This document shows positions 4,477 through 46,223 of a stretch of 64,000 bases of DNA, piece by piece. The DNA lies in the NCBI GenBank assembly GCA_964569045.1, contig CAZMSR010000001.1, forward strand, positions 2,593 to 66,592, read 5' to 3'. The first letter of the stretch is position 1. Each line of letters starts with the position of its first letter. The stretch comes from an uncultured Gammaproteobacteria bacterium. GTDB lineage: Bacteria; Patescibacteriota; Patescibacteriia; Patescibacteriales; BS150m-G62. Under the pieces are notes generated by a model, which was not told the DNA's origin, did no database searches, and saw only the letters and a list, made by a program, of their open reading frames with translations. The position numbers and the translations under genes are program-made.

Positions 4477-4478
4477 AT

Positions 4479-12669: not shown

Positions 12670-13695
12670 TTATTTTAATTTTTTTAAAATTTCTTCAGGA
12701 TAAATCCCAACTCCGGCTTTTCCAATGTGAGTGATGGGTATATTAAATCCATATAGATTTTCTTTTACTAGTCTTAATAATTGATTTGTTGCCGACTCTA
12801 CTACTATTATTTTTTTAACTTGTTTTATTGTTTTTATTAGTTCTTTTTTTGGAAACGGTTGAAGTGTGATCGGTCTATATAGCGCTACCCTTTTTTTTGA
12901 TTTATTAATTGCAGCCTTGGCGGCGAGTCCTACAATTCCATGGGCTATTATTAAGTAATTCAAGTGTTTTGTTTTAGATTTAGAGTAGAATTCATATTCT
13001 TCAACTTTACTACTTGCACGTATAAAATCTTTCTTAAGTTCTTTGTTTAGTTTATAAATTTCCTCTTCATGTTCATAACAATTGCGATAGTTAATGTATT
13101 CATTTTTGTTACCAAATAATTCAGTTGTTTTAATTTTTAAAGAATTTTTTGTTGATAACTCAACTTCACTGCGTAATTTTGTAGTGTATCCGTCAGTTAA
13201 AACAAAAGTTGGGAATTTATATTTCCAAGCAGTGACAAAAGCTTTTTTTGTGAATTCATATAGCTCCTGCAATCCGGCCGGGGAATAGACTATTCTGTAG
13301 CCTTCTGAGTTTCCTCCGTATGCTGTTAGATTAACTTCTTGTTGAGAATAAACAACCGTGCCTGTTGAAGGTCCGCCACGTTGACCTATTACACATACTA
13401 TTGGTATGCGCATACTCTCTGCCATGGCTAATCCGTCTTGCATTAAGATATTTCCGGGACCGGCAGTTGCAGTAAAAGCAATTTTCCCTCCCATAATATT
13501 TCCAATGGTAGTAAACCCTGCTGATATTTCGTCTTCTGTTTGAAGAAAGTCAAGATTTTGGTTTTTTTCTTTTTCTTTTAACCAAAATTGCATTATTTCA
13601 GAAGCAGGAGTTATTGGGTAAGCAAAAAATCCGGTAGCCCCTACTTCGGCTGCGGCACGAGCTATAATTTCAGAACCCATCATAAATTGCTTCAT
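12670..13695 (-). CDS. 2-oxoacid:ferredoxin oxidoreductase alpha subunit
   Basis: FAYPITPASEI and TATAGPGNILMQDGLAMAE motifs collinear with PorA/KorA. First gene of the minus-strand operon. Confidence 0.85.
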   Translation of the reverse strand: MKQFMMGSEIIARAAAEVGATGFFAYPITPASEIMQFWLKEKEKNQNLDFLQTEDEISAGFTTIGNIMGGKIAFTATAGPGNILMQDGLAMAESMRIPIVCVIGQRGGPSTGTVVYSQQEVNLTAYGGNSEGYRIVYSPAGLQELYEFTKKAFVTAWKYKFPTFVLTDGYTTKLRSEVELSTKNSLKIKTTELFGNKNEYINYRNCYEHEEEIYKLNKELKKDFIRASSKVEEYEFYSKSKTKHLNYLIIAHGIVGLAAKAAINKSKKRVALYRPITLQPFPKKELIKTIKQVKKIIVVESATNQLLRLVKENLYGFNIPITHIGKAGVGIYPEEILKKLK

Positions 13696-13765
13696 AAATT
13701 AATTATATCACAAATTATTTAATTTAATTGTTGATAAATATTTATTAGTATACAGATTAATTTAA

Positions 13766-13824
13766 AAATGCATTATATTTTGTGTGAGTAGCAATTGAGT
13801 GTAGTGCCGTATTGGCGGCAAAAG
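13766..13824 (+). repeat. dispersed intergenic repeat family B, rearranged fragment
   Basis: AAATGCATTATATTTTGTGTGAGTAGC followed by GAGTGTAGTGCCGTATTGGCGGCAA. Both pieces match parts of the 61550..61742 element. Confidence 0.45.
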
Positions 13825-13931
13825 TTTAAATATGGGATACTAAAAGTAGCCACTTAATTGCGCAAACAAGTAAATGTTTGCACAAGTTCAAGTTATGGTT
13901 ACTAGAATTTAAAAAAAATATATAAAAAAAT

Positions 13932-15866
13932 ATGTCTAAAATAAAATCTGTAATATCTGATAATAAAGTATATAAGCCATTAAAAAAGTTTAGTGCTAAG
14001 GCGCATATTAAAAGCATAGAAGAATACAGAGCGCTCTATAGTCAAAGCATAAAAAAGCCGGAAATATTTTGGGCACGAGAAGCTGAGAATTTAGAATGGT
14101 TTAAAAAATGGGATAAGGTGCTTGAGTGGAAAACGCCATTTGCTAAATGGTTTTTAGGCGCTAAAATCAACTGTTCGTATAATTGTCTTGATAGGCATTT
14201 AAAAGATTATGGCAACAATGACGCAATAATTTGGGATGGAGAAAATGGAGATAGTAGAAAATTAACTTATAAAGAGTTACACAAAGAAGTATGTAAATTC
14301 GCAAATGTTTTAAAAAATTTTAAAGTTAAAAAAGGAGATAGGGTAGTAATCTACATGCCCATGATTCCGGAAGTGGTTGTTGTTATGCTTGCTTGTACTC
14401 GCATAGGAGCAATTCATTCGGTAGTGTTTGGCGGATATTCTAGCGAAGCTTTAAAAGTTCGAGTTAAAGATGCACGTGCAAAAATAGTGGTAAGTGTTGA
14501 TGGCGGTTTTAGAAAGGGAAGTTTTACGCGTATGAAAGAAAGTGTGGATATGGCACTTAGTGATATAAAATTTGTAAAAAATGTGATAATAGTAAAGCGA
14601 AATGGAATAAAAGTTAAAATGAAAAAAGGCCGTGATTTTTGGTATCATGCTGTAATGAAAAAGTCTAGTATTGATTGCGTTCCGGCTAAGATGGGGGCTG
14701 AGGATCCTTTGTTTATTTTATATACAAGCGGTACAACCGGTAAACCAAAAGGAGTTGTGCATACACATGGTGGATATTTAACCCAAGTTGCTATGAGCGC
14801 TAAATATATTTTTGATTTGCATGTAGGTGATAAGTTTTGGTGCACTGCTGACGTTGGTTGGATTACCGGTCATTCTTATGTTGTTTATGGACCGTTACTA
14901 AATGGAGTGACAACAATTATGGCAGAAGGCTTGCCAACTTATCCTAAGCCGGATAGACCTTGGAGATTAATTGAAAAACATGAAATTTCGCAATTCTATA
15001 CGGCTCCCACTGCAATTAGAATGTTAATGAAATTAGGTCGCGAGTGGCCAAGTAAATATAAAATGAAAAGCTTAAAAGTTATTGGTAGTGTTGGCGAGCC
15101 AATTAATCCTGAGGCTTGGAAATGGTATTACAATAATATTGGAAAAAGGCGTTGTCCCATTGTAGATACTTGGTGGCAAACTGAAACAGGTTCTATTTTA
15201 GTTACTCCGTTACCGGGTGCTACAACTTTAAAGCCCGGTTCAGCTACTTTGCCTTTTTTTGGCATTGATGCTGATGTTGTAAATTTAAAAGGAAGAAAAG
15301 CTCGGGTAGGGGAATCAGGTTATTTAGTTATTAAAAAACCATGGCCATCAATGTTGAGAACTGTTTATAAAAATGATGCTAGGTATAAAAAGACATATTG
15401 GGGTGAAATTAAAAACGTTTATTTTGCAGGTGATGGAGCACGCAGAGATAAAGATGGGTATATTTGGATTATGGGACGAACCGATGACATTATAAAAGTA
15501 GCCGGACATAGGTTGGGAACAATGGAAATAGAAAGTGCATTAGTGTCGCATAAGGCAGTAGCGGAAGCAGCGGTAGTAAGTAAACCGAGCGAAATAAAAG
15601 GAGAGGAAATTGTAGCTTTTGTTAGTCTAAACAACAATCATAGTGAGTCAGAAAAATTAATTAATGAGTTGCGTGCTCAAGTCGCAAAAGAAATTGGACC
15701 AATAGCTAAACCTGCTGAAATAATTATTGTCGATAATTTGCCAAAAACCAGAAGTGGTAAAATTATTAGGAGAATTTTGAAAAATATTGCTAGAGGAGAA
15801 GAAGTAAAAGGTGATATTTCAACAATGGCTGATATTAGTGTGTTGGAAAAATTAAGAAAAAATTAG
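13932..15866 (+). CDS. acs: acetyl-CoA synthetase (AMP-forming)
   Basis: 644 aa. YTSGTTGKPKGV AMP-binding motif, WWQTETG, and C-terminal PKTRSGKIIRR. Full-length collinearity with Acs. Confidence 0.92.
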   Translation: MSKIKSVISDNKVYKPLKKFSAKAHIKSIEEYRALYSQSIKKPEIFWAREAENLEWFKKWDKVLEWKTPFAKWFLGAKINCSYNCLDRHLKDYGNNDAIIWDGENGDSRKLTYKELHKEVCKFANVLKNFKVKKGDRVVIYMPMIPEVVVVMLACTRIGAIHSVVFGGYSSEALKVRVKDARAKIVVSVDGGFRKGSFTRMKESVDMALSDIKFVKNVIIVKRNGIKVKMKKGRDFWYHAVMKKSSIDCVPAKMGAEDPLFILYTSGTTGKPKGVVHTHGGYLTQVAMSAKYIFDLHVGDKFWCTADVGWITGHSYVVYGPLLNGVTTIMAEGLPTYPKPDRPWRLIEKHEISQFYTAPTAIRMLMKLGREWPSKYKMKSLKVIGSVGEPINPEAWKWYYNNIGKRRCPIVDTWWQTETGSILVTPLPGATTLKPGSATLPFFGIDADVVNLKGRKARVGESGYLVIKKPWPSMLRTVYKNDARYKKTYWGEIKNVYFAGDGARRDKDGYIWIMGRTDDIIKVAGHRLGTMEIESALVSHKAVAEAAVVSKPSEIKGEEIVAFVSLNNNHSESEKLINELRAQVAKEIGPIAKPAEIIIVDNLPKTRSGKIIRRILKNIARGEEVKGDISTMADISVLEKLRKN

Positions 15867-16214: not shown

Positions 16215-18296
16215 TTATTTATTGAGTAACCAGTCTTGATTTTTTAGTTTTTCTTCTACTATGGCTGCTGTTAATGGCTTTGAAAAATAATAACCTTGAA
16301 TTTCATTACAGTTGATTTTAAATAACCATTCTTTTATTATTTTTTTTTCTACGCCTTCTGCGACTGTTTTTAATCCTAAGGAACGACACATTGTTAAAAG
16401 CGCAACAACTAAAGCATAATTAGCTTTGTCGCTGGCTATGTCGTCTGGTAATTCGCGAATAAACGTCTGATCAATTTTAACACAATCCAGCACTTTTTCC
16501 CGCCACCAGTCTCTAATTCGCTGCAAGTTTGAATCATGTGTGCCAACATCATCAATTGAGATTGCAACACCTAGTCTTTTAATTTTTTTAAGTATTTGCA
16601 TTACTTCTTTATTATTCCAGTTTTGGTTTGATGATTCTGTAATTTCTATTTCCAGGTGTTTAGGTGCAATGCCGGCGTTTTTTAAGGCACTACTTATGTT
16701 CGTAATAATTTTTTTATTTTCTAACTGCCTTGGTGAAACATTCACTGCTATTCTGAATTTAGTAATATCTTTGTTAATCCAAGCTTTGGCTTGTGAGCAT
16801 GCTTCATGTAAGACCCATGCTCCAAGTGTGTGTATTAATCTTGATTCTTCTGCAATAGGTATGAATTCAGCCGGAGAAACAAAGCCCCATTTTGGCTCAA
16901 GCTCTCGTTCTTCCCATCTTAGTAAGGCCTCAAGTCCTGCGATGCGATAACAACCATTTTCTTTGCTAATTTTTGGTTGATAATAAAGTGAGAGCTGTTT
17001 TTTTTGTATAGCCTCCATTAATTTATTTCTGATTAAATTTTTTCGAGTAGCTTTGTCTTGTATTTGTTCATTGTAAAGCTTATAAACACCTCTTCCGTTT
17101 TCCTTTGCCTGATACATAGCAGCATCAGCTAGTCTTAATAAGTCTTCGCGATCTTTTGCGTCGTCAGGACAAATCGCGACTCCAATTGATGCGCTAAGTC
17201 CGCAAATTTCAATGTTATTAAATGTAAAAGGTTTTTTAAGTGCTTTAATCACCTTGTCTGCTACAATTCCGCTATCAACAGAGTTATTTACGGTGGCAGT
17301 GAGTGTAAATTCATCACCTCCAAGTCTGCAAAGTTTGTCATTTTCTCTTAAAACAGAGCTAATTCTTTTAGCTACTTCAATAAGAAATTTGTCACCAAAA
17401 GTGTGACCGTGAATATCGTTAATGTTCTTAAAGTAATCTAAATCAATAAAGAGTAAGCAAAGTTTTTTTTTATAGCGATTTGATTCTGCTATACTTATTT
17501 GTGTTAAGTCAAGAAAAGATCTTCTGTTGGGTAGTTTTGTTAGTGGATCAAATTGTGCGAGCTCTTGCCATTTTTTTGTTGCTTTTTCAATTATTTCGCC
17601 TTGAGTTTTTGCATGGCTAATTAGTTTGTTTTTTAGATTTTTTAGCTTGTACTTTAAATATCTTTCACGAGCAAAGAAGATGAACAATAAGATAATGATT
17701 GTTATTTGAGTATTCTTGCTTGTGTGTGCGCTTAACCTGTCAAGGTCGATTAATAGATTTCTTAAAACTTTGTTAAGATCGTTATTAAATCCACTAGAGA
17801 AAAAAGCTTTATATGTTATTAAGTCATTAATGTTCCTGGAAAAAGTTGAGCAAGCATGTGCCGGTGTGTGTTTTACAAATTTATCAATTAATCGTTTGTA
17901 AGGCTGTGAAATAGTTTCATGAGTTTGGTTGCTTATTAAGGTCTGATATCTGTCTAGTATTGTTAGTAGATATGGAATTTGTTTATTGTATAGTAATTTT
18001 AATACAATGTTTTTATTGCATTCTTCGATAATTGTGAACTCAGATGTTGATATTATATCTGAAGCTATTAAAAAGGCTGCTTCAACAGCCTCTTCTTTGC
18101 TGTTATGATCTAAATGACTTTTATTGAGAAAGGATTCTAGGTAGTATGACACATTTGACAATTTGGATTGTTCTTTTCCAATGGTTGCTGTAATTCTTCT
18201 TGTGATTTCAAGGTTATAAAAGAAATACAAGAAATTCAAGATAATTAAGAGCATAAGAAGTGTTGGAAACGAATTCTTTGTTATTTTTTTAAACAT
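16215..18296 (-). CDS. membrane-anchored GGDEF-EAL c-di-GMP signalling protein
   Basis: N-terminal TM helices. RLGGDEF motif. EAL-domain motifs LEALLRW, EIEITES and KIDQTF. The DDFGTG position is degenerate (DDVGTH). Confidence 0.88.
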   Translation of the reverse strand: MFKKITKNSFPTLLMLLIILNFLYFFYNLEITRRITATIGKEQSKLSNVSYYLESFLNKSHLDHNSKEEAVEAAFLIASDIISTSEFTIIEECNKNIVLKLLYNKQIPYLLTILDRYQTLISNQTHETISQPYKRLIDKFVKHTPAHACSTFSRNINDLITYKAFFSSGFNNDLNKVLRNLLIDLDRLSAHTSKNTQITIIILLFIFFARERYLKYKLKNLKNKLISHAKTQGEIIEKATKKWQELAQFDPLTKLPNRRSFLDLTQISIAESNRYKKKLCLLFIDLDYFKNINDIHGHTFGDKFLIEVAKRISSVLRENDKLCRLGGDEFTLTATVNNSVDSGIVADKVIKALKKPFTFNNIEICGLSASIGVAICPDDAKDREDLLRLADAAMYQAKENGRGVYKLYNEQIQDKATRKNLIRNKLMEAIQKKQLSLYYQPKISKENGCYRIAGLEALLRWEERELEPKWGFVSPAEFIPIAEESRLIHTLGAWVLHEACSQAKAWINKDITKFRIAVNVSPRQLENKKIITNISSALKNAGIAPKHLEIEITESSNQNWNNKEVMQILKKIKRLGVAISIDDVGTHDSNLQRIRDWWREKVLDCVKIDQTFIRELPDDIASDKANYALVVALLTMCRSLGLKTVAEGVEKKIIKEWLFKINCNEIQGYYFSKPLTAAIVEEKLKNQDWLLNK

Positions 18297-25793: not shown

Positions 25794-26672
25794 ATGGCTG
25801 GATTAGGAAGAGGATTAGATAGTCTAATCCCAAAAAAAGTCAATAAAATAACAACAACACCGCGAGGTGAGGCGCTTGTTGAAATTACTTCAGAAGATGA
25901 TTTGCAAAGAGTTTTAAAAATCAACCCTAATGAAGTACGCGTTAATCCATATCAGCCAAGAAGAAGATTTAAACAAGAGCAGCTCGAAGAATTAATGGAT
26001 TCAATCCAGCAGCATGGCATTATTCAACCATTGGTTGTAACAGAGGTTGAAGATGGTGTATATGAATTAATTGCCGGAGAACGAAGATTAAGAGCTTCGC
26101 AGAATCTTGGTTTAGATTTTGTTCCGGCAGTTTTGCGTGATGCTGATAGTCAGCAAAAATTAGAAATGGCATTAGTGGAAAATATTCAAAGAGAAAATCT
26201 TAACCCGATTGAAACTGCCCTTGCATACAGAAAGCTACTAGACGAATTTAATATTAAGCAAGATGAATTAGCAAGAAGAGTTGGTAAAGCTCGACCAACC
26301 GTTGCTAATACGCTTAGAATGCTAAATTTGCCCACTGATATTCAAGATGGATTAATTGATGGCGCTATAACGGAAGGACACGCTAAATTAATAGCAGGAT
26401 TAGAAGAGGAAATAAAACAAAAGCAACTTTATGATCAAATTGTAAATAACAAGATGTCGGTAGGCGCTACTCTTAAGGAAACAAGACGCTTAGGAGGCAC
26501 TAAAGAGGCCAGAGTAAAGATAAGCGCAGAAGACAAAGAAAAAGAATATTTACTAAGAGAATGGCTAGAAACTAAAGTTGAAATTATGAGAAATTCTAAA
26601 GGTGGTGGAAGAATTGCAATAGATTTTTATTCTGATAAAGATTTAGATAAGATTTTAAAAAAAATGAGTTAA
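25794..26672 (+). CDS. parB: chromosome partitioning protein ParB/Spo0J
   Basis: ParB-box IAGERRLRAS, HTH QDELARRVGKARPTVANTLRML, and the NPYQPRR N-terminal motif. Confidence 0.92.
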   Translation: MAGLGRGLDSLIPKKVNKITTTPRGEALVEITSEDDLQRVLKINPNEVRVNPYQPRRRFKQEQLEELMDSIQQHGIIQPLVVTEVEDGVYELIAGERRLRASQNLGLDFVPAVLRDADSQQKLEMALVENIQRENLNPIETALAYRKLLDEFNIKQDELARRVGKARPTVANTLRMLNLPTDIQDGLIDGAITEGHAKLIAGLEEEIKQKQLYDQIVNNKMSVGATLKETRRLGGTKEARVKISAEDKEKEYLLREWLETKVEIMRNSKGGGRIAIDFYSDKDLDKILKKMS

Positions 26673-26697
26673 GTTAATTTTTCAATGCATAAAAAAG

Positions 26698-26722
26698 GCG
26701 TGGCTAAAAGCTGCGTTTTTTT
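26698..26722 (+). terminator. candidate intrinsic terminator after parB
   Basis: 8-bp stem GCGTGGCT/AGCTGCGT (three G-U pairs), then T6. Lies 26 nt after the stop. Confidence 0.35.
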
Positions 26723-26744
26723 AATAAAAAATACTTGTTCATGT

Positions 26745-26789
26745 AAAATTTCCAAATTTATAAATTAAAGCGAGTTTGGCGACAGTCCC
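26745..26789 (+). mobile_element. MITE-A remnant (one end only)
   Basis: AAAATTTCCAAATTTATAAATTAAAGCGAGTTTGGCGACAGTCCC matches the right 45 bp of the copy at 56693..56852. No left TIR is present. Confidence 0.6.
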
Positions 26790-26825
26790 TAGTGAAGAAA
26801 TGGTATTATGTTGTGTGAATAACTG
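26790..26825 (+). repeat. dispersed intergenic repeat family B, fragment directly abutting the MITE-A remnant
   Basis: TAGTGAAGAAATGGTATTATGTTGTGTGAATAAC aligns with CTGTGAAGAGATCGTATTATATTGTGTGAGCAGG at 5467..5500. Confidence 0.45.
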
Positions 26826-26826
26826 C

Positions 26827-26866
26827 AAAAAAAACACCCCTCGAAAAGTGATTCTTTCGAGGGGGG
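26827..26866 (-). terminator. strong intrinsic terminator oriented on the minus strand with no annotated upstream gene
   Basis: On the minus strand: CCCCTCGAAA - 8-nt loop - TTTCGAGGGG (10-bp perfect stem), then TG + T8. On the plus strand the hairpin lacks a T-run. Confidence 0.55.
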
Positions 26867-27065
26867 ATTGATGAGACGTTTTTGAGCGTCAGATCTCTTG
26901 GTAGTTACGAGGTACAAAGCATGCATGTTTTTGTTTGTAAGCATTTTTCCTGTCAAGCATGGCCCTTAATTCTGCAAGTTGCCACGTGACTTTAGGAGAG
27001 TTGTTTACAAACTTCCCAGAAATAAGAGTTGAGTTATATATTAATACTATCATATATTGCTTAAA

Positions 27066-28682
27066 ATGTCAATAGATTGTGTGGCTAAAATTCAAAATTT
27101 ACCAAAATCAAGGATTTTTTTTGTGTGCCTTATTATTTTTATAATCAGTATTGCTATAGCGTCTTATTTGCCATTTAAAATAAAAAGTTATTCTATTCAA
27201 TTATTTTTCATAATCAGTATATTAACATTTTTTTCATTTTTTATAAAAAAGCCAAAAATTTTTCGTATAATATTAATCTGGTTAACATTTTTATCTCTGG
27301 CTTTTTGTCGTTTAGCTCTAAGTGCGCCAAGTCTTAACAATAGTATTCAAAATTATAATAATTCTAAAATTAATTTTGTTGGATTAATTTTACTTTATCC
27401 GGAAAAAAGAATCAATAATCAAAAATTAGTAATCAAAGTAGAAAAAGTTCATAAAGTAAACAAAGCAAAAAATGCTGCTAGCTTAAATAAAGTTACAGGC
27501 AAAGTTCTGATATTAACTAATTTGTATCCTTCATATAAATATGGCGATAAGCTGCAGATTATATGCAATTTAAAAGCTCCAAAGCAGTTTCGTGACTTTG
27601 AGTATGATCGTTTTTTAGCAAAGTCCGGCATATACTCACTTTGTTATTATCCTCAAATTAAACTAATTAGCAAAAACAATGGCAGTTCATTTTATACTTT
27701 TTTATACACTGTAAAATCAAAGTTGCAAAAAACAATAAATTCAAAAATTAATGAGCCTTATGCCGGATTAGCGCGAGCTATAATTCTTGGAGATAAAAGC
27801 GGCATAACCAGCAATATGCGTGATAGTTTTTCAAAATCCGGTATTAGTCATGTTGTAGCTATTTCCGGAATGCATATTAGCATAATTTCTACTTTATTAA
27901 TGAGTATTTTAATATATATCGGGCTAAAGCGAAAGGTAGCTTTTATTTTTGCAAGTATATTTTTAGTATTCTATATATTATTAATCGGAGCTCCACCTTC
28001 TGCGGTAAGAGCGGGGTTTATGGGAATTATTGTTTTAATTGCTCTTTATATTGGTCGTTTAAATAAAATTTCTAATGCATTAGCTTTAGCTGCGGCAATG
28101 TTATTAATAATTAATCCCTTGTTATTAAGAGACGACATTGGCTTTCAATTATCATTCTTGGCTGTTATTGGGATAGTTATATTTTATCCAATTTTTAATA
28201 ATTTATTTTTAGAAAAAATAAAAAAATCGAGTGTTGTAAATAGATTACCTTTTATTTTAAATAGACTAATGATTATTTCTATGCAAATAGTTTTTGTTAC
28301 TCTTGCCGCTCAATCATTAGTACTTCCGATTATTATTAATAATTTTAAAGTTTTTTCTTTAATTTCTCCTTTAACTAATCTATTAGTTCTTTGGCTTTTA
28401 CCATTTTTAATGGTTTTAATAATTTTTGCTTTGATTATTAGTTTTTTTATACCAATAGTTAGCACTCTAATTTTTACTGTTGTAGAGTTAATGCTAAAAT
28501 ATATTGTTTGGGTTTCAAATTCTTTAACAAAATTTTCATTTTCTTTTTTAGAAGTAAATTACTTAAGTAATTTTTGGTACTTAACTTATTACACCATGCT
28601 AGTCGGAGTATGTTATATGTATTGCCTTTATGAGAAAAAAACAAAAAAAACGTGTCATAATAGCATTGATTTTAATAATTAA
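27066..28682 (+). CDS. comEC: ComEC/Rec2 competence channel, membrane (DUF4131 + Competence) part
   Basis: Polytopic protein with the GISHVVAISGMHISII signature. Ends 53 nt inside the next ORF after an A7-C-A8 tract. The ORF-track start 27057 is a TTG; ATG is at 27066. Confidence 0.8.
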   Translation: MSIDCVAKIQNLPKSRIFFVCLIIFIISIAIASYLPFKIKSYSIQLFFIISILTFFSFFIKKPKIFRIILIWLTFLSLAFCRLALSAPSLNNSIQNYNNSKINFVGLILLYPEKRINNQKLVIKVEKVHKVNKAKNAASLNKVTGKVLILTNLYPSYKYGDKLQIICNLKAPKQFRDFEYDRFLAKSGIYSLCYYPQIKLISKNNGSSFYTFLYTVKSKLQKTINSKINEPYAGLARAIILGDKSGITSNMRDSFSKSGISHVVAISGMHISIISTLLMSILIYIGLKRKVAFIFASIFLVFYILLIGAPPSAVRAGFMGIIVLIALYIGRLNKISNALALAAAMLLIINPLLLRDDIGFQLSFLAVIGIVIFYPIFNNLFLEKIKKSSVVNRLPFILNRLMIISMQIVFVTLAAQSLVLPIIINNFKVFSLISPLTNLLVLWLLPFLMVLIIFALIISFFIPIVSTLIFTVVELMLKYIVWVSNSLTKFSFSFLEVNYLSNFWYLTYYTMLVGVCYMYCLYEKKTKKTCHNSIDFNN

Positions 28683-29490
28683 TTTAGTATTAATATGTTT
28701 TTGGCTTTTTATAGATATAAAAAGGCAGTTAGAGGTGATTTTTTTAGATATCGGGCAAGGAGATTCTGTTTTAATTAAAGCACCGCACGGGCAAAATATA
28801 TTAATTGACGGAGGACCTGATAATAGTGTTGTAAAAGCTTTAGGCAAAGAATTAAAGTGGTGGGACAGAACAATAGATTTACTTATAGTATCGCATCCCG
28901 ATAATGATCACATAGGCGGTACAATTCCTGTTTTAGAAAGATATAAAGTTTTAAAAGTCCTTCATACAGGCATTAAACATAGCACTCCGGTGTATGAAGA
29001 ATGGAAAGTAATTGTTCAAGATAAAAAAATTAAAAATTTAATTGCTAAAAATGAGCAAATAATTAATCTAAGCAAAGCTTGTCACCTTAATATAATATAT
29101 CCGGATAAAAGCATTTATGAAAGTGAGTTTAAAGTAGTTAATAATTCTTCAATAGTTACTAAATTAACTTGCAAAAATAAAAAGTTTCTCTTTGCCGGAG
29201 ATATTGAAGAAGAAACAGAGAAATATTTAATTAATAAAAAGATTAATCTTAAGGCTGATGTTTTTAAAGCCTCTCATCATGGGTCTGACACTTCTAATGC
29301 AGAAGATTTTTTAAATTTAGTAAAACCGGAAATTGTAGTTATTCAAGTGGGGCATGAAAACAATTTTGGTCATCCTAGTTTGCGAGTTTTAAAGCGGTTA
29401 GAACGTTTAGGCGCTAAAGTCTATAGGAATGATCAAGATGGAGTAATAAAACTCCAGGTTATTAACGGTAAGGTCTTAAAAGTAAATTAG
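28630..29490 (+). CDS. comEC: ComEC C-terminal metallo-beta-lactamase-fold domain protein (separate or frameshifted)
   Basis: FLDIGQGDSVLI, SHPDNDHIGG and ASHHGS motifs of the ComEC Lactamase_B domain, preceded by one TM helix. Frame is +1 relative to the upstream comEC ORF. Confidence 0.8.
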   Translation: MRKKQKKRVIIALILIINLVLICFWLFIDIKRQLEVIFLDIGQGDSVLIKAPHGQNILIDGGPDNSVVKALGKELKWWDRTIDLLIVSHPDNDHIGGTIPVLERYKVLKVLHTGIKHSTPVYEEWKVIVQDKKIKNLIAKNEQIINLSKACHLNIIYPDKSIYESEFKVVNNSSIVTKLTCKNKKFLFAGDIEEETEKYLINKKINLKADVFKASHHGSDTSNAEDFLNLVKPEIVVIQVGHENNFGHPSLRVLKRLERLGAKVYRNDQDGVIKLQVINGKVLKVN

Positions 29491-29586
29491 TAACGCATTT
29501 GGGGAAAACTATAAGTAAATTATTTTTTGTAATTATGATATACTTATTACAAGGAATTTTTTAAATTTTAAATTTTAGTTTTTATA

Positions 29587-30615
29587 ATGAATATAGCAAT
29601 TAATGGTTTTGGTCGTATTGGCAGAGCCGTTTTAAAAATACTTTTAGAAAAAAAGAATATGAATATTGTTGCTATTAATGATTTAAACCCAATAGCAACA
29701 CTTGTTCATTTATTAAAATTTGATAGCGTTTACGGAGTTTTTCATGAAAATATAAAATTTAACAATTCTAGCTTGATAATAAAAGGGAAAAGAATAAAAG
29801 TAACTGCTAAAAAAAATCCTTTAGAATTACCATGGAAGGAATTAAAAGTAGATTTAGTTATAGAATCAACAGGAGTATTTAGAACACATGCGCAATCAAT
29901 AAAGCATATTGCTGCAGGTGCCAGAAAAGTTATTATTTCAGCGCCACCAAAAGATTGTAACTGTAAAGACAAAAATTGCCAAGTAAAAATAATTGTACCG
30001 GGAGTAAACGAGAAGATTTTAAGAAAAAGCGATAAAGTATTATCAATGGCTTCGTGTACTACTAATTGCCTGGCTCCTGTTACTAATGTAATTAAAAAAG
30101 CTTTTGGTGTTAAAAAAGCAATAATGACAACTGTGCATTCTTATACTGCCGGTCAAAATTTAGTTGACGGGGCAAATAATGACCTTCGTAGGGCTAGAGC
30201 GGCTGCTGTAAATATTGTTCCCACAACCACCGGAGCCGCTAAAGCAACTTGCATTACTTTGCCGGACTTAGTTGGAAAATTTGACGGAATAGCAATAAGA
30301 GTCCCTACCCCCACTGTATCACTTTGCGATATCGTGTATGTGACAAGTAAAAAAACAACAAAAGAAAAGATTAACAAGGCTTTTATTAAAGCTTCAAAAA
30401 GCACAGGCCTAAAGAACATATTAAGTGTATCTAGCTTGCCTTTAGTATCTTCGGACTATATTGGTGACTCTTCAAGCGCTATTGTTGACTTAGCCTTAAC
30501 AAATGTTATTGACGGCGATTTGTTAAAGGTTTTGGCTTGGTATGATAATGAATGGGGATATTCAGCTAGGCTAGCAGATACTTGCGAATATATAAAAATA
30601 AAAAAATTAATTTAA
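29587..30615 (+). CDS. gap: glyceraldehyde-3-phosphate dehydrogenase, type I
   Basis: INGFGRIGR, active-site ASCTTNCLAP and WYDNEWGYS. Confidence 0.92.
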   Translation: MNIAINGFGRIGRAVLKILLEKKNMNIVAINDLNPIATLVHLLKFDSVYGVFHENIKFNNSSLIIKGKRIKVTAKKNPLELPWKELKVDLVIESTGVFRTHAQSIKHIAAGARKVIISAPPKDCNCKDKNCQVKIIVPGVNEKILRKSDKVLSMASCTTNCLAPVTNVIKKAFGVKKAIMTTVHSYTAGQNLVDGANNDLRRARAAAVNIVPTTTGAAKATCITLPDLVGKFDGIAIRVPTPTVSLCDIVYVTSKKTTKEKINKAFIKASKSTGLKNILSVSSLPLVSSDYIGDSSSAIVDLALTNVIDGDLLKVLAWYDNEWGYSARLADTCEYIKIKKLI

Positions 30616-33009: not shown

Positions 33010-34056
33010 CTACAAGCTTACTATTAGCCATTCTTCGTTTTCTTGTTTTTCTAAAGTAACTTTGTACTTTACATTTTTGCCTCCTAGGCTAAAATACACA
33101 TCAGTTTCGTATATTTTTTTGTTTCCTATTTGTTTTTTAAATTTTAAATCACTTAGTAAATTAGAAAAAAGTAAAATTCCGTCTTTATTAAGAAAATCAA
33201 TGGTATGGTCTATTGCTCTTTTTAAACCCGGTGAAAAGTAAGCGCTAGCACTTTGTTTGTTTTTAGCACGAATAGCAGTTGCAGCACCGGTGAGCGTACT
33301 ATCTGCTGAGCGGGATTGATTATTCTTAGGAGAGTTGTAATAGGCTGGCTTTGTTGGAGTAGTATAGCTTATAGGCCTTTGGTGTCTTTCTTTTTTTAAT
33401 AAATTGTCTTGTGGTTTGTTGATTTGTTTATTAGGTGATTTTTGCAAAACAATTGAGTTGCTTACAATTTTATTTATATTTTTATTACTAATTCCTAGCC
33501 CTAAATTACGCATTAAGTTAAAGGCATCACTTGGTTTTCCTAAATAATAGCGTTTATAATTACTTGGATTAACATACCAAGCTTCGCCGCGTGACTCGGT
33601 TTGGATAAATATTTTACCTGCATTAATCCGGCTAAAATTATAATCCGGATTTAATTTTTTTTTGCTAAGCGGATCATAGTTATTAGCTAGCTCATTAGCA
33701 TCACTGTATCCGTCATTGTCACTGTCAATCTCTAATGGATTTGTGCCAATTGCTATTTCAAGATTATCACTAAGTCCGTCTTTGTCTTTGTCCGGCCCTT
33801 TGGTTATTGCAATAGGAATTTTTGCTAAATCAATGTTTGTTATTCCAATACCCAAATGTTTCATTATTTCAAAAGCGTCTTTTGGTTTTCCTAAATAATA
33901 TTTTTTTAGATCAGTTGGGTTTACATACCAAGCTTCGCCATTGCTTTCTATTTGTAAGAGAATTCTGCCATTTAGTCGCTCTATTAAGGATTCTCCGGCA
34001 AGGCTTTTAAGTGGTAATAAAAATAAACTTAAAATAATAAAAATGCATTTTTTCAT
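33010..34056 (-). CDS. secreted protein with two GEAWYVNP modules and thrombospondin-type-3-like Ca-binding repeats
   Basis: Likely start M11 (MKKCIFIILSLFLLPLKSLA signal peptide). LNGRILLQIESNGEAWYVNP.. and AGKIFIQTESRGEAWYVNP.. modules. DKDKDGLSDNLE..DSDNDGYSDANE repeats. Confidence 0.6.
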   Translation of the reverse strand: MKKCIFIILSLFLLPLKSLAGESLIERLNGRILLQIESNGEAWYVNPTDLKKYYLGKPKDAFEIMKHLGIGITNIDLAKIPIAITKGPDKDKDGLSDNLEIAIGTNPLEIDSDNDGYSDANELANNYDPLSKKKLNPDYNFSRINAGKIFIQTESRGEAWYVNPSNYKRYYLGKPSDAFNLMRNLGLGISNKNINKIVSNSIVLQKSPNKQINKPQDNLLKKERHQRPISYTTPTKPAYYNSPKNNQSRSADSTLTGAATAIRAKNKQSASAYFSPGLKRAIDHTIDFLNKDGILLFSNLLSDLKFKKQIGNKKIYETDVYFSLGGKNVKYKVTLEKQENEEWLIVSL

Positions 34057-34077
34057 TAGTTTTGCTATATTAAAAGT

Positions 34078-34587
34078 ATGAGTCAAAAAAATAAAATAAC
34101 TCTATTTATTATAGCACTATTTTTTATAGTCGGGTATTTTAGCACGCCTGCTATAAAGCAAAAGTACGCCATTATAAAAGCCACAAACGCTGCCGGCGGG
34201 TTTCCATATCAAATTGGATTAACTAATGTAATTGTTGCTCCTTGTGTATTTATACCAGAGCCACCAAAATGCGTAGTTGGTCCACTGTGTATGACGTTAT
34301 CAGATCCTGCAATTTGTAATATGCATGCTGAGGTGTTTGGCACTCCGGCCGGTGGGATGGGTAATAACGCACTTTTTTTAAAAACTTCGCTTGCAACTGC
34401 CGGTGTAACTTCCGGTGGTCAGTTAATTGCCGGTGGTATCTCTAACGTATTAATGAGTAGTGGAGTGCTAGGTGGCCCTACCGGGTGTGTTGGGTGTGTA
34501 GCTACTAAAGAAAGTGAGCGTAATTTTGTATTACTCGAAATATTTAATAATTTAAAAACATATTTTATTGCTAGTTACTTAAAATAA
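34078..34587 (+). CDS. hypothetical N-terminally anchored Gly/Cys-rich protein
   Basis: 169-aa ORF with one TM helix and 5-bp spacing to rsmA. No recognisable motif. Confidence 0.4.
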   Translation: MSQKNKITLFIIALFFIVGYFSTPAIKQKYAIIKATNAAGGFPYQIGLTNVIVAPCVFIPEPPKCVVGPLCMTLSDPAICNMHAEVFGTPAGGMGNNALFLKTSLATAGVTSGGQLIAGGISNVLMSSGVLGGPTGCVGCVATKESERNFVLLEIFNNLKTYFIASYLK

Positions 34588-36204: not shown

Positions 36205-39200
36205 GTGCATAGGAAAAATTTTTTTCTAAAAACAAAAATTTTCAAACAAAAGGCAATAAGTGCCTTGATTTTTGTTTTTATATTTGTGCAAGTGGGTGTG
36301 CCGATAGTGGAGGCTCAGTCAAGACCTAGTAATTTGGCGCTAGCTTCTGCAGAAATAAAAACTAAAGCATATGGAACCGAGCAAGTAATTAAAAAACAAA
36401 CTAGGACTGACAAGGATCGTACTGCTGAGCAGATTCGTCAAGAAAGGTTAAAACAGCTTAATGATAAAGCAAAAAAAAGTACTTTTAGAAGTGTTGTTAG
36501 TAGTGTGCTTAATACTATAGCCTATGACACTGCTTCTTGGCTTGGGGCTGGAGGAAAAGGTCAAAAACCATTGTTTATTCGCGAAGGTTGGGGTGAATAT
36601 TTATCTAATATTGGTGATCAAGCTCTTGGGCAGTTTATTGAAGAGTTTGCTAAAGATTTTGTAGGAGACGCTTGTAACCCGGAAGTTGGTTTAAAAATAT
36701 CACTTGGGATGAAAGGTCAGCAACGACCAACTTTTGGAAAGTGTAGTTTTACTCAGATGGTTGATAACTGGGAACAAGCAATTGAAAGCACTGACTTTTT
36801 AAATAATTTTCAAAGTGTATTTGATCTGAATAATAGCACAACAGATATAAGCATGGCATTAAACGCAAATATTGGATTGCTTGAGTTTCAATTAAGTGAG
36901 CAAGAAAAAGGAAAAAGAACAAGAGGTAATACAGATGAAAATCTTCCACGTGACCCTGCCGGTCGTGCCACAGCACCGCCAGGAATGGCATCGGTTTTAA
37001 CCGAAGAGCCTCTTGAATGGTTTAGACAAAACTGCGCTAATCCTTCCGGAGATACTGTTTTGGTAGAAGCTATGACAGTATTTGTTTGTCAATTGTCTTA
37101 TACTGCTTTTGTGACTTTGCTTATGGATTTACTGGCTGATAAGCCAACAGTAACCGAGCCATATAGTGGTTCGTATAGTTTTGAGTCCGGTCCTAGAGCT
37201 GATGGAATATCAGGAACTAATGAATATATGCGTAGTATTCTTCAGCCTAATTTTGATATTCGCGGTGATTATGAAATTTTATCTGAATTAGTAAACTGCC
37301 CTAATCCTAATAAAGCCGGGCCAACAAACTGCGTAATAACTGAAAATTTTCGTAAGGCAATTTCAGAACGTAAAACAGTTAAAGAGGCTTTAAATGGATA
37401 TTTAAATCCGCAAGGAATATTTGGTTTTGTTTCTGAGGATCTAGAGCCATTGTATAATGAAGGTTATCCGTATAGATCAATGATTATTTTGCGTAAATTT
37501 AGAATTTTGCCTGTTGGGTGGGAATTAGCTGCTGAATATATAAGAAATAACCCAAGCGTTGGTACATTTAATTTGCAAGATCTTGTTGATTGTTATGATT
37601 CGACAGATAGTAATATGGCATGGTGCAGTGGCTTAGTTGACCCTGATTGGGTATTAAAAGCGCCGCTTAATAGCTGTAAATTAGAAGGACCAGGCCCGGA
37701 GATTATGCGCGAAAGTGTTGTGGGGCAAGGTGTTAATTCAAGAAGATCAGTTCAGCGTAATACTACATATTGTGCTGATGAGCAAAGTTGCATTAAAGAG
37801 CGAGATGATGGGTCATGCGATGCACACGGATATTGCACGGAAGAAAAACGTACTTGGAATTTTGCTGCTGAATCATGCAACCCTATTTTTAATACTTGCG
37901 ACACTTTTACTAGAGTAGATAATGATTCTTTTACTGTTAGTTATTTGCAAAATACTTTAGACACATGTGGTCAAAATGAAATTGGTTGCAAAGAATATTC
38001 AACTAAAGTTGAAACAGATGAATACGAGCCAATAACAGATGTTGTTAGTGAGTGGAGTGGTAGTCAAACTGATTCTATATTTTTTAATTCAAATGCAGCA
38101 GAGTGCACTGTAGACGAAGAAGGTTGCCATATGTTTTTAAGAGAAGCTACTAATAATACACCTACTTATTTAAAATTGCTTCCTGATTACTTGGGTCAAG
38201 TTTGCTATAATTTAGGCACAGATACAAGCGAATACTATAATTACAAAGAAGATCTAACGCCTGAAGTTAAAGCGCGTTGCGAACAATTTGTAAGGCGTTG
38301 TAATGCTAGCGAAGTAGGTTGCGAGCTATATACTGACATAGTACGCGGTGATAAGATCCCGGCTAAAATAACAACTTTAAACCAATGCCCAAATGAATGT
38401 GTTGGCTTTGATGAGTATCAAAAACGCGAAACTATTTTTGAAAGTAGTGAGAGCGCCTATTTTATCCCAAGATACGCTGATACTTGCCGCCTGGACATGG
38501 TTGGTTGCGATGAATTTACAAACTTAGACGAAGTAGCCCGCGGCGGTGAGGGTCGCGAATACTATGTTGATTTAAAACAATGCGTTGACCCGGACGAACC
38601 GGAAGGCGAAGCTTGCTCTAACTTTTACATTTGGGAGCAGCTTAACACCGGCCCGCAGTTAAACGTATTAAATTTAAAGGCAGATGCAAAAAATGGTGGC
38701 GCACCCGTAGTTACAAACAGCAATGAAGATTGCACAGAACAAACTTTTAACAATCCGGAGCATCCTAACTACAACCCTGATTGCCAAGAATTTTTAGACG
38801 AAAACGGTGAAAAGCACTACAAGCTTTACTCTAAAACAATTACCTGTTCCCAAGATTGCCATACCTACAGAAGAGCCGGGCAGAATATTGATTATAGTAT
38901 TGCAAAAAATAGTTGCAATAACGGAAGCAACGGTGATGAAAAAGGCTGGAGTTCAACACATAACGCTTGCGTGGTTTGTAAAAACGGTGGTAAATGGAAT
39001 TCAAGCCAAGGCGCTTGCCTCTATAGCGCTATACCCGGCGAAGGGCGTTTATGCTCCCAAGAATTTGCCGGTTGTCGCGAATACTCAGGCCCACAAGCTG
39101 CTAATGTTCGCGAAATCGCGCGCTATGATTTTGAAGGGGTTCATCCTTCTTTAGCTGATTGGAGTAATGCTGAAATAGCTAACGAAGCTTTGTTAATAAA

Positions 39201-42200
39201 CGGGCAGTCAATAACAAATACTTCAAGTCAAAGCTCAGTCTCACTTAATTTGGGCGGTAGATTAAGACCCGGTAGCACATATATACTTTCTTTTTACGTA
39301 AAGCCCGGTAATACTGCTAATTTTAAAGTGAAAATTGATGATACTAATGGTTCTGAGATTAAAGGACTAAAGCAAGACAAATGGCAAAGAGTTGAAGAAT
39401 TAATAACTTTAACCAATAGCGTTGCTAATCAAACAATGTCTATTGGATATGATAATGGAAGCACAAAATTCTACATTGATGACTTTAGGTTAATAGAGGT
39501 GATTGACAGATATTATTTTATGAAAGATTCTTTTGAGATTCCATCAATGTGTCATCAAGAATATTGGAAGCTTCTTAGTCCGGAAAATTATCCGATTCCT
39601 TTTAATGAAGGTGGTTATCCTTTTCCAAATTATTCGCTTGGATGCCGCGAATATCAAGATAGAGAAAGCGCTTCACATTTTTTAAAAGATTTTACAGAAC
39701 TATGCCAAGAAACAGCAGTCGGCTGCGAACGCATGATAGATACCCATAATTATACAGGTGAGGGAGCTGAAGCATGGAATGAAAGTAATCCGAATGAAGG
39801 CGATGATGCCTGCGATTCCGGAGAACAAAGCTGCGTTTCTGTTCTGGCTAATAACTTAGTGTATGTAGTATATGATACTGAAAAGCAGTGTAATGCAGAT
39901 GATAAAGGTTGCTCAAGATTTGGCGAGAAAAAGTCTGTTGCAGGTACTCCGTATTACGAAGATGCTTATATTAAAAATAATCCGGATCATTATAGTACTT
40001 CAGTAGATTCTGATGCTATTTTATGCACTCAAGATGGTATTAGTTGTAAAGCTTGGATTTCGGAAATTAATGGTACGCGCTATTTTAAAGATCCGGAAGG
40101 CAAGGAGTGTGAATGGCGAGCTAATAGTGATGGAATAGAAAATTGGTATCAAAAAAAAGCGAATCGTTGTGATACAGATAGCAACGGAGTAATTAATGAT
40201 AGTGAAAATCTTCCAGCTAATAGTGGAGCGAATGGTGCATTAAGCCCGGCTTGCGCAAGCGCTCGTTCTTGCAGTGTAATCACTGATCCGTCTGATAGCT
40301 GCCAAAAAGACAGTGATTGTGGTAATAATACTTGCATTGATTCGCAGTGTCGTTATTCTTGTATTCGTGATAATCGAGATCATGTGTGCGGTAATCAAAA
40401 TGCTTTAAAAACAATTGGCTCAAATGGTGTTAATTCTCACATTAGTCAGCCAAGTGGCAGTGATGGTTGGGTTGGGGTTTGCCCAATTCGTGAATCCGGA
40501 TGCACAGAATATATTGATCCAATTGCAGAATTTAGCACAAATTTAGTATTTAACCCAAGCGGTGAAGAAATTGCCGGAGTTAATAATGCAGGTTGGGAAA
40601 ATCATACTCCAAACGGATTTAAGCAGGAGATCGAAGTCGAACCGGCTACGCTTTATACAATTAAAGGCGCAACTAAGTTTCAGTGTGATAATGCTATAGA
40701 TAAAATGAATTCAGATAATGTTTTGGTAAATGTGGCATTAACTACAGATATTACTTTGACAAATGGAGAAAGTATTTTATTTAAAACAAATAATAATGCT
40801 AATAAATGTACTGTTTTTAGGGATGGTGATGTAACGGAAGTTATCTTACGCAAAGCAGAGGCGAATTATAGGTTATTAAAAGATATTGACAGAAGTTCTT
40901 GCCATGAACCTGATTTTGATAGTGGCTGTATTTTGTTTAATGAAAGAACTCAGTTTGGCTATAGCGAGAATATGAGTAGTCTTTCTTATAATGCTGACAA
41001 TTTAGAGGCTTTGAATAATTGTACAAATGGAGCTAATTGTGACTCAAACCAAATTTTAAAAGTTGAACCTAATAGAGTTTGCGCTGAATGGCTTGCGTGC
41101 AGGTCAATGGTTAAGGTTAGGGATGAAGATGGTCAAGAATCAAGTGTTTGCCTAGGTGTTGGAGCATGTAATGGTCTTGATAGTAATGATGAATGTAGTA
41201 GTTTTGTAAGAAAAGAAAGAATAAATAATGACTATACAAAAGATAGCGTAACAGCGGCAAGTGTTAGTAATTTATCCGGATATTCTAAGATTGGGTACTC
41301 AAAATATAAAAACAATGCTCAATTGCCATCATTTGAACGAAATGATTTATTTTCATTAAGTGCTATGAGTCAGGTTGGTGAAATTGCAGTAGTGCCAAAT
41401 GGTAGCTTTGAATTTTCAGGTGAGAATGGATACCCGATTGGTTGGAGTTGGGATAATCAAGAAGAAGTTGATAAGGTTTGGACACCAAATGTTTTTAAAG
41501 TAATTAATAGTCCTTATGAGGTAAAAGAAGTTGAAGTTATTAATTTTTCACCTGCCGGAGAGGGATTTATTAAAATTGGTTCATCTCATGTAGTAATTTC
41601 AGAAGAAATAGATGTTGAGCCTCAAAGAGATTATATTTTTACTGCCTATATTAATACTCAAAATTTACAGGTTGGTAACGGTGTGATTGATATTGTATCA
41701 GCCGGAGAATCTATTACTAGCACAACAGAAGATCAAGGAGGTGAGGGTTGGATATTTAAAATAAAGAAATTTAGATCAAATTCAAATCAAATTAATATTA
41801 AACTATATAATGATGACAACGATTCTTCAGGAGTTTTTTATGTAGATGGAATAAAATTAAGACCGGCTTTACATACTAGAATTGAATCTACTGAAACTGA
41901 AGACCAAACTAGTTCTGACAATTGGTATGTGCCGCAATCATGCAAACTTTATCCTGAGCCAAGTTCCTTAGCTTGCGAGTATATTGATGACTCCGGTGTT
42001 AATCAAAGGGGGTTGTATGGATATTGCTTAGAATATGATAGATATCCGGGTGATGAAAACACATGTTTGCTTTGGTATCCGGTTAATAGAGTTAAAGGCG
42101 ATTGGATAGAAGAAGGTGCGGGCTATAGTGATAGGTTTCCTCTTTATTATTGCCTTGAAGCAGTTGGATACTGCTCTGGAACAGAAGGTGAGATACCGGC

Positions 42201-45280: not shown

Positions 45281-45338
45281 ATGCTTAATAATTATGATTG
45301 TAGTATTTATTAATATTTATAAGTTTTTTAATATTAGA

Positions 45339-46223
45339 ATGAAATATTTATTTACAATTTGTTTGCTATTTTTTGGTTGCGCAATGCAGGCTAAGGCCTT
45401 TAATATATGTGCAGTAATGGAGTCTGGGTTTGTAACCGAATTAAGTGGCGGAGCATGCCCCGGTAGTGCATCCGGTGCTTCAGCGGAGGTGTCTTATGAA
45501 TTTAAATTAGGAGCATCTTGTGGTGATGGTGTAGTTGGGCTAGCAAGTTCAGAGGAATGCGATTGTGGAAAAGATTCTAATGGAAAGCGAATATTAAGAT
45601 GCTTGGGAGGAGGCACAGGCCATAATGACCAGTATATTTGCACTGATTGTAGATGGAATAATAGTGGTTGGCTAGGAGATGGAATAACAAATGGAAGCGA
45701 AGTGTGTGATCCGGTAGTAAATTTAATTGACGGCACAAAACCTCGAATTAAGCCATGCACTGTTCAAACAAATTTTCCAAATTATTGCGCTCAAGAGTTA
45801 TCAGGTAATCAAAAATGCGCATCTAACGGTAAATCATGGGAAGAGTGCGATGCATTAAGGCCAGTGCCTTCTGAAGATGAGTTTTCGCAGTGCAAAGCTA
45901 TTGGTAATACATTAAGTGATTATGTATGTTGTGTTTTAATAGGGTGTGATCAGGATGGATGCGCTTGTTGTGGTAGAGGCAAAGCCGAGACTCCGGAAGG
46001 TTATGATACTGTTGGATCAATGGATGCCACATGGAATCCTGACAAGTCGCTTAAGGATGATTTTCGAAGTAATAACCAAAATATATATAATAGCTGTGGG
46101 GAGTATTCTGAAGCCGGGAATGATCCAGAAAATGCATGTAAGTTAGTTAGATCAAATGATAATCCACGGAATTGGAAAACAGTAGTAAATAATGCTACCG
46201 CTCGTCATAAATGTTGGAAGTAA
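45339..46223 (+). CDS. secreted Cys-rich protein (CGDG..EECD repeat type)
   Basis: Start moved to ATG 45339 (signal peptide MKYLFTICLLFFGCAMQAKA). The mature N-terminus FNICAVMES is shared with the 47225 product. SCGDGVVGLASSEECDCG motif. Confidence 0.6.
   Translation: MKYLFTICLLFFGCAMQAKAFNICAVMESGFVTELSGGACPGSASGASAEVSYEFKLGASCGDGVVGLASSEECDCGKDSNGKRILRCLGGGTGHNDQYICTDCRWNNSGWLGDGITNGSEVCDPVVNLIDGTKPRIKPCTVQTNFPNYCAQELSGNQKCASNGKSWEECDALRPVPSEDEFSQCKAIGNTLSDYVCCVLIGCDQDGCACCGRGKAETPEGYDTVGSMDATWNPDKSLKDDFRSNNQNIYNSCGEYSEAGNDPENACKLVRSNDNPRNWKTVVNNATARHKCWK

Follow-up and report, generated by a model that had tools for sequence, protein, structure and literature searches.

The comEC gene in the 64-kb stretch of contig CAZMSR010000001.1 analysed here (the window) is divided between two overlapping open reading frames (ORFs), and we consider it highly probable (roughly 0.87) that the locus is a stable, lineage-typical two-gene ComEC of a bacterium of the Patescibacteria, or candidate phyla radiation (CPR). 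The upstream gene, ORF1 or comEC-N (27066..28682, + strand), begins at ATG 27066, with TTG 27057 as an alternative start, and encodes 538 aa counted from the ATG; the downstream gene, ORF2 or comEC-C (28630..29490, + strand), begins at ATG 28630 and encodes 286 aa that are predicted to form a stand-alone ComEC-type metallo-beta-lactamase (MBL) nuclease. From the start of ORF2 to the stop of ORF1 at 28682 the two genes overlap by 53 nt (28630..28682, + strand), the frame of ORF2 being +1 relative to that of ORF1, and the overlap carries an A7-C-A8 tract (28635..28650, + strand; A7 at 28635..28641, C at 28642 and A8 at 28643..28650). An earlier note on this DNA had described the two ORFs and had remarked that the frame switches at the tract, both of which the sequence bears out exactly, and had offered a phase-variable switch, a sequencing or assembly indel and a genuinely split gene as explanations; the last of these agrees with what we observed, the two-gene arrangement being the rule among the closest relatives.

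Profile searches identified the domains of a complete ComEC on the two ORFs. Residues 46-199 of ORF1 match Pfam DUF4131 (PF13567; the N-terminal OB-fold; E 9e-11; score 42.2 bits, cut-off 31.6) and residues 239-517 match Pfam Competence (PF03772; E 7e-55; score 186.6 bits, cut-off 23), and ORF2 matches Pfam Lactamase_B (E 1e-18). On the NCBIfam profile TIGR00361 (ComEC_Rec2, 663 positions) ORF1 spans positions 74-363 with 82.2 bits and ORF2 positions 412-663 with 131.7 bits, both under the equivalog cut-off of 190.05, and thus neither native ORF presents the three domains on one polypeptide above that cut-off; an artificial ORF1+ORF2 fusion scores 225.4 bits in one stretch covering profile positions 73-663. 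ORF1 also aligned to residues 26-450 of chain 30bt_A, a full-length ComEC (801 aa) solved by cryo-EM, and residues 11-276 of ORF2 to its residues 511-785 (E 2e-34). Since ORF1 and ORF2 map to successive stretches of both TIGR00361 and 30bt_A, they are colinear halves of a ComEC, and matches at E 2e-34 and 1e-30 to ComECs of solved structure fix both the fold and this colinearity. Judged from these alignments, the break between the halves is the loop preceding the last transmembrane (TM) helix of full-length ComEC. The domain order that the earlier note had called usual for ComEC is therefore present, but the size of ~800 aa that it had called usual is not that of this lineage, in which ComEC has ~500 aa.

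The presumably cytoplasmic C-terminus of ORF1 is a short Lys-rich tail (..CLYEKKTKK) followed by 10 unconserved residues translated from the overlap, so that the protein ends in ..KKTCHNSIDFNN. ORF2 has, as had been pointed out before, its own ATG and a basic N-terminus leading into a TM segment: the residues MRKKQKKR precede a predicted signal-anchor TM helix (residues 9-28, VIIALILIINLVLICFWLFI; 28654..28713, + strand), and this N-terminal helix corresponds in the alignment to the final TM helix of a complete ComEC (30bt_A, from residue 511 onwards). The same layout is found in relatives. All four catalytic motifs are intact in ORF2, namely the MBL motif 1 DIGQGD (residues 40-45; 28747..28764, + strand), which is present in 114 of the 120 best homologues, the metal-binding motif HPDNDH (residues 89-94; 28894..28911, + strand), the ComEC-type HHGS (residues 216-219; 29275..29286, + strand), of which HHG is found in 117 of the 120, and the ComEC-type NNFGHP (residues 244-249; 29359..29376, + strand), which has the same letters in 30bt_A. 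The H-x-D-x-D-H form of the metal-binding motif is restricted to ORF2 and its closest homologue, H-x-H-x-D-H standing in its place in the remaining 118 of the 120 stand-alone homologues; for Moorella ComEC, PMC12455585 likewise gives H-x-D-x-D-H.

The split is shared by the relatives of both proteins, as counted among the best 120 matches for each of two queries, the repaired fusion and ORF2. When the repaired fusion was the query, DUF4131 and Competence were the sole domains of 109 among the best 120 matches (443-573 aa, 38-53% identity), and the 11 fused ones (709-809 aa) are just 31-35% identical; where they are named, the MBL-less matches belong to Patescibacteria, Falkowbacteria or Parcubacteria. 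With ORF2 as the query, every one of the 120 best matches is a stand-alone protein of 267-311 aa, an N-terminal hydrophobic 19-mer (KD >1.6) being present in 112 and a net positive charge ahead of the hydrophobic segment in 110. The two-gene arrangement is common to more than 100 homologue clusters.

A neighbourhood scan of 80 loci, using one genome per species and seeking an MBL ORF within 6 kb, showed comEC to be unfused at every Patescibacteria-labelled locus, fused genes being present at loci labelled as other phyla, e.g., Dehalococcoidia and Desulfobacteria. A separate MBL ORF was found within 6 kb at 22 loci, where it opens with a start codon of its own (ATG in nearly all cases) and shows the order few basic residues, hydrophobic helix and L-x-V-x-F-L-D-V-G-Q-G-D. 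In this set comEC-N and the MBL gene overlap by 53, 25, 20, 17, 17 or 7 nt or are separated by gaps of 3, 10, 10, 65, 73, 74, 85, 145, 165, 230, 252, 431 or 653 nt, and more distant MBL genes lie 2.3 kb away, 3.5 kb away with three genes between (locus L003) or on the opposite strand (L034). The nearest relative identified, L001 (ORF1 53% and ORF2 62-63% identical), has the synteny of the window (LTD/PKD protein-parA-parB-comEC-N-MBL) and keeps the 53-nt overlap and the +1 offset with different nucleotides (ATG-A8-G-AT-A5); the position of ATG 28630 is kept as the start in the closest homologue (MKKKIKTRAVVF..). A 165-nt spacer lies between the genes in L005 (ORF1 46%, ORF2 53% identity), and three genes coding for 718, 169 and 171 aa separate the halves in L003 and L004 (ORF1 47-48%, ORF2 46% identity, the latter partial). 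These three inserted genes (5615..9015 of L003/L004) had no Pfam match.

A pair of Chloroflexota-labelled loci shows both states. L035 is split (7250..7360) and L036 fused (~7290..7470), yet their N parts are 73% and their C parts 80% identical; L036 is fused via a linker of ~24 residues, and L035 is broken by a stop, AGGAGG and ATG in the same loop. The two loci are a clean natural fission or fusion pair, and because they differ by a stop, AGGAGG and ATG in one loop, this loop tolerates being broken. A neighbour-joining tree of the MBL domains, rough and unbootstrapped, suggests that the split or fused state has changed at least twice.

The A7-C-A8 tract at the frame junction has a more ordinary origin than its position implies. 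As the earlier note had anticipated, deleting one A joins the frames into a single polypeptide of about 800 aa; a single ORF of 807-808 aa, reading ..CLYEKK(T/Q)KKRVIIALILI.., results when either run loses one A or gains two, and the junction peptide of the hypothetical ~807-aa product is ..YEKKTKKRVIIA.., also given as ..YEKKTKKRVIIALILI... The tract, however, is codons 2-7 of ORF2 (R-K-K-Q-K-K) and reads E-K-K-T-K-K in the frame of ORF1, and AAA makes up 81% of the Lys codons in the window, where GC is 32%. According to the positive-inside rule, basic cytoplasmic residues are expected on both sides of a break in a cytoplasmic loop. The frame switch coincides with the tract because the N-terminal Lys codons of ORF2, at a Lys-rich cytoplasmic end, are AAA; the coincidence thus has a trivial cause, and the A-run is fully explained by Lys codons. 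The tract is also statistically ordinary for the DNA of the window, which holds 161 runs of A or T of at least 7 nt, 47 of at least 8 nt and none longer than 9 nt; 131 runs of at least 7 nt lie within the 43 ORFs examined, the comEC pair counted, and compound tracts of the N6+ x N6+ type occur four times in the 64 kb. We read A7-C-A8 as a by-product of the AAA-coded, positive-inside N-terminus MRKKQKKR in a genome of 32% GC, one that may additionally keep the SD-less ORF2 start (SD, Shine-Dalgarno) unstructured, and the 53-nt overlap as arising because the ORF1 frame continues until its first stop is reached.

Comparison of the junctions points in the same direction. Across 22 orthologous junctions the tract is not conserved, sequences, offsets and gaps all being different, and the overlapping junctions of L013 and L057 are without any homopolymer. 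A-runs of at least 7 nt also occur at or just before the MBL N-terminus in L009, L028 and L049, where the genes sit 230-653 nt apart and a frame switch is therefore meaningless. A split comEC in orthologues that have no homopolymer supports a stable split, as the earlier note had said that it would together with uniform read support for the tract.

The tract was, furthermore, identical in independent assemblies. The exact ORF2 protein (P0121) was found on 15 contigs in NCBI, JGI, Logan and ENA data, and the exact 538-aa ORF1 protein is called in assemblies from the same four sources. We compared the junction in JGI 3300009008, JGI 3300007759, ENA ERZ23499124, Logan SRR9166047 and Logan SRR8062320, and the 141-nt junction including A7-C-A8 was the same as in the window in all five; two of them carry, outside the junction, one single nucleotide polymorphism (SNP) relative to the window, and the compared contigs are therefore not copies of one record. 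The difference in tract length that marks a contingency locus was thus absent between these assemblies, 5/5 being identical as consensus sequences. The existence of a fused allele was decided by exact look-up, not by homologue search. In a collection of 15 billion proteins, the exact-sequence look-up returned both the 538-aa ORF1 and the 286-aa ORF2, and none of the three possible fused proteins. A word-indexed homologue search with the 807-aa repaired fusion missed P0121 and the cluster that contains the exact ORF1, a cluster represented by a 386-aa fragment, though the collection includes both, and negatives of that search are consequently not readable as absence. Among the window genes examined (43 ORFs with 131 in-ORF runs), no other gene looked broken at a homopolymer.

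These results bear on four alternatives to a stable two-gene comEC. Indel errors typically arise in homopolymers and a one-base deletion restores a single ORF, so that the true gene might be a single ~807-aa comEC broken by sequencing or assembly. Against such an error stand the same sequence in five contigs from five samples or runs handled by different pipelines (JGI, ENA submitter, Logan), the same architecture with different nucleotides in the 53% identical L001, and the lack of any sign of breakage at homopolymers in the other window genes examined; we regard an indel as extremely improbable, and this suggestion of the earlier note is not supported by the data. Equally improbable is a recent pseudogenisation in which comEC became frameshifted and the MBL part is a decaying, unexpressed remnant. 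Overlapping ORFs in different frames do resemble a fresh frameshift, but ORF2 retains every catalytic motif and is 62-63% identical to its L001 orthologue over the full length, its start and signal anchor are conserved, more than 100 homologue clusters share the arrangement, and the window also holds a ComF-family gene, which suggests that the uptake pathway is intact. A phase-variable contingency switch, also put forward in the earlier note, would have replication slippage toggle comEC between a split state (OFF or altered) and a fused one (ON). The compound tract lies precisely at the frame junction, and competence is phase-varied or inactivated in some bacteria. However, slippage cannot turn ON orthologues with gaps of 3-653 nt or three inserted genes, the split state is ancestral, clade-wide and present without homopolymers, and runs of 7-8 A are ubiquitous in this genome. 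Moreover, the tract was unchanged in all five assemblies, which come from different samples, no fused allele was found among the 15 billion proteins, L001 is split too, and the fused state is essentially absent from CPR bacteria (PMC6744442). A switch at this locus is thus very unlikely.

Recoding differs from these in leaving both genes functional, RNA-polymerase slippage or ribosomal +1 frameshifting adding a functionally relevant ~807-aa fused fraction beside the two proteins. Poly(A) runs of 7-8 nt allow some transcriptional slippage, removal of one A from either run joins the frames cleanly, and L001 shares with the window the length of the overlap (53 nt), the +1 offset and the place of an A8 run. 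Nevertheless, the tract is unconserved and overlaps of 25 and 17 nt occur without a homopolymer; in other orthologues, gaps with stops or intervening genes make fusion impossible. ORF2, with its ATG, positive N-terminus and signal anchor, has every mark of a protein that is inserted independently, the 129 other in-ORF A/T runs of at least 7 nt give no sign of recoding, and the A-run is accounted for by Lys codons. A programmed frameshift is marked by a conserved slippery motif and by the lack of an independent downstream start, a combination that the 22 orthologues do not present. We therefore judge recoding unlikely, and we are similarly sceptical that the A-run was kept in the overlap of the window and L001 as a recoding site giving a minor fused ComEC and hence two stoichiometric forms of the uptake machine.

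Several points nevertheless weigh against a stable two-gene ComEC as described here. The assemblies compared are consensus sequences, and minority variants in tract length are possible at the read level. In the window and in L001 an A8 run lies inside the 53-nt overlap, where a -1 slip would fuse the frames, although a low-level fused product from this run seems improbable to us. About half of the related loci have no MBL gene within 6 kb; the nuclease may thus be dispensable or encoded elsewhere in some lineages, and a tight complex of the two proteins is therefore conjectural. The taxonomic placement is taken solely from the names of database matches. Finally, translation of ORF2 from ATG 28630 and association of ORF1 with ORF2 are deduced from the sequence.

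Regarding the start of ORF2, the check for a Shine-Dalgarno (SD) sequence that the earlier note had proposed found none at the canonical distance ahead of ATG 28630, the sole GGAG sitting 21 nt upstream. This absence is uninformative, since an SD core (GGAG, GAGG or AGGA at -16..-7) is present in only 3/43 window genes and the organism is therefore not reliant on SD pairing. In 60-nt windows, annotated starts have a mean fold energy of -4.3 kcal/mol and gene interiors one of -7.1 kcal/mol; the ORF2 start region, at -3.7 kcal/mol, is typical of starts and more weakly folded than 80% of internal windows. AAA, the second-codon choice seen most often in the window, follows the start in 7/42 genes. 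A promoter scan of 26500..29800 gave 24 promoter-like matches against 18.4 +/- 4.0 in shuffles, thus no excess, a terminator scan of the + strand of the same region found none between or after ORF1 and ORF2, and Rfam and tRNA scans of the window had no matches.

Taken as a stable two-gene ComEC, the locus suggests the following model. comEC-N would supply the extracytoplasmic OB-fold and the transmembrane DNA channel and would end in the cytoplasmic loop before the last TM helix; comEC-C, with an ATG of its own, would begin in that loop and code first for a short cytoplasmic N-terminus rich in Lys and Arg. ORF2 would then be a type-II (N-in/C-out) signal-anchored protein whose helix replaces the last TM helix of fused ComEC and whose ComEC-type MBL nuclease sits on the outer face of the membrane. 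Both polypeptides would be made from one transcript and reassembled in the membrane as the equivalent of a three-domain ComEC, the nuclease degrading the non-transported strand while the channel imports the other. The MBL domain of ComEC is described as a Mn-dependent nuclease important for transformation (PMC8579336, PMC12455585 and PMC13539106), and comEC is required for transformation in a cultured Saccharibacterium (PMC10633639).

Also in the window, and ~25 kb downstream of comEC, lie components of DNA uptake and of type IV secretion. A ComF-family gene (55927..56670; ComFC/GntX-like, with a phosphoribosyltransferase domain) was matched with E 1e-31, below the family cut-off, and its presence fits an active DNA-uptake pathway. 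Near it, at 53352..55289, is the gene for a VirB4-like ATPase of conjugal transfer, which belongs to the CD1110 family and scores 355.5 bits (cut-off 325).

Compared with known systems, the window ComEC resembles the canonical three-domain ComEC/Rec2 (B. subtilis; Moorella, 30bt and 9ic4; TIGR00361) in the order OB-fold, channel and last TM helix with MBL, in the motifs DxGQGD, HxDxDH, HHGS and NNFGHP, and in that its artificial fusion passes the TIGR00361 cut-off, but differs in that two polypeptides carry it, the break falling in the cytoplasmic loop ahead of the last TM helix. It is closer to the unfused ComEC of CPR type, since it stops after the competence domain and has its best homologues in Patescibacteria, Falkowbacteria and Parcubacteria. 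Meheust et al. (2019; PMC6744442) report the ComEC-MBL fusion to be essentially absent from CPR bacteria, Pimentel and Zhang (2018; PMC6299819) class such proteins under a 'DC' domain profile with Lactamase_B lost, and Silale et al. (2021; PMC8579336) treat degradation of the non-transforming strand in ComECs without the C-terminal domain (CTD) as an open question. In contrast to the surveys of Meheust et al. and of Pimentel and Zhang, which score the MBL as absent or lost, the window and at least 22 related genomes encode a separate MBL that is predicted to be anchored and is usually adjacent.

A functional analogy is offered by EndA of Streptococcus pneumoniae, a separate membrane-bound nuclease that degrades the non-transforming strand (PMC8579336). 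As would be the case for ORF2, this nuclease is a polypeptide apart from the channel, anchored at the outer face of the membrane and acting during uptake; its fold is unrelated and not an MBL, whereas ORF2 is an orthologue of the ComEC C-terminal domain and not a recruited nuclease. Homopolymer contingency loci and the poly(A) slippage rescue of AT-rich endosymbionts share with the window a poly(A) at a frame junction in an AT-rich small genome. Unlike them, the window has no length polymorphism among the assemblies, no fused allele and no conservation of the tract, and its downstream ORF is an independent gene.

That CPR bacteria are without the ComEC-MBL fusion is already known, and the small addition made here is that, judging from predicted anchors and gene positions, the nuclease has been retained in membrane-anchored form, encoded by a gene of its own that is usually a neighbour of comEC-N. 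No description of a separate, anchored, usually adjacent MBL gene was found in the parts of the ComEC literature reached by keyword and phrase searches, literature searches on a divided or frameshifted comEC returned nothing relevant, and public annotation names the stand-alone homologues 'MBL fold metallo-hydrolase' or 'ComEC/Rec2 family'. The separate membrane-anchored MBL may be the missing nuclease of 'CTD-less' ComECs across Patescibacteria; if so, it would partly answer the question of the fate of the non-transforming strand in such organisms. Surveys by domain profile count the nuclease domain as lost in these organisms, and here it is still present as a separate, predicted signal-anchored protein. 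Annotators should neither 'repair' the junction nor label it a pseudogene or a phase-variable locus, and lysine-rich protein ends can be expected to make poly(A) runs routinely at gene boundaries of AT-rich Patescibacteria. The break point in the cytoplasmic loop could also be used for expressing ComEC halves separately in biochemistry.

Upstream of comEC, the spacer to parB (26673..27065) is unusually long, measuring 393 nt where L001 has 68 nt and L003 has 30 nt. On its minus strand we observed a sigma-70-like promoter match (TTGACA-17-TAGTAT with a TG extension, 27072..27044) and a strong terminator-like hairpin (26864..26827; CCCCTCGAAAG...CTTTTCGAGGGG) followed by a T-rich tail (TG, T8). 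The minus-strand spacer RNA (~27040..26827; 221 nt) folds with -57.4 kcal/mol (z = -4.1 against shuffles) and matches no Rfam family. We regard the element as a candidate for a small RNA or for a small ORF on the minus strand (26889..27053, 54 aa).

Elsewhere in the window, the pair 4033..4476 / 4443..5417 was considered as a second split gene and rejected, these being two unrelated complete genes for a SixA phosphatase and a Na/Ca exchanger. The gene prfB for release factor 2 (56912..58003; 464.7 bits against a cut-off of 370) is one uninterrupted ORF. A programmed +1 frameshift in prfB is common in other bacteria, and the window prfB is without one; the presence of the gene fits UGA as a stop codon (genetic code 11). 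A giant ORF of 2623 aa (36205..44076) has only a weak CBM_4_9 match (E 8e-4, below the cut-off) and no significant Pfam domain, and it is followed by ORFs without family matches at 44195..46223, 47225..49858 and 50760..52199. Bacterial TSP3-repeat proteins are encoded at 46237..47088 and, on the minus strand, at 33010..34086, and together with the giant and the family-less ORFs they may be cell-surface proteins of the episymbiont type. Signalling and fermentative genes (138..2441, 6065..8766, 12670..15866 and 16215..18296) are abundant for a presumed small-genome Patescibacterium; the former include two GGDEF-EAL proteins, one of them with GAF and PAS domains, and the latter a [FeFe]-hydrogenase large subunit beside a NuoF-like subunit, a subunit of the pyruvate:ferredoxin oxidoreductase (PFOR) type and an acetyl-CoA synthetase.

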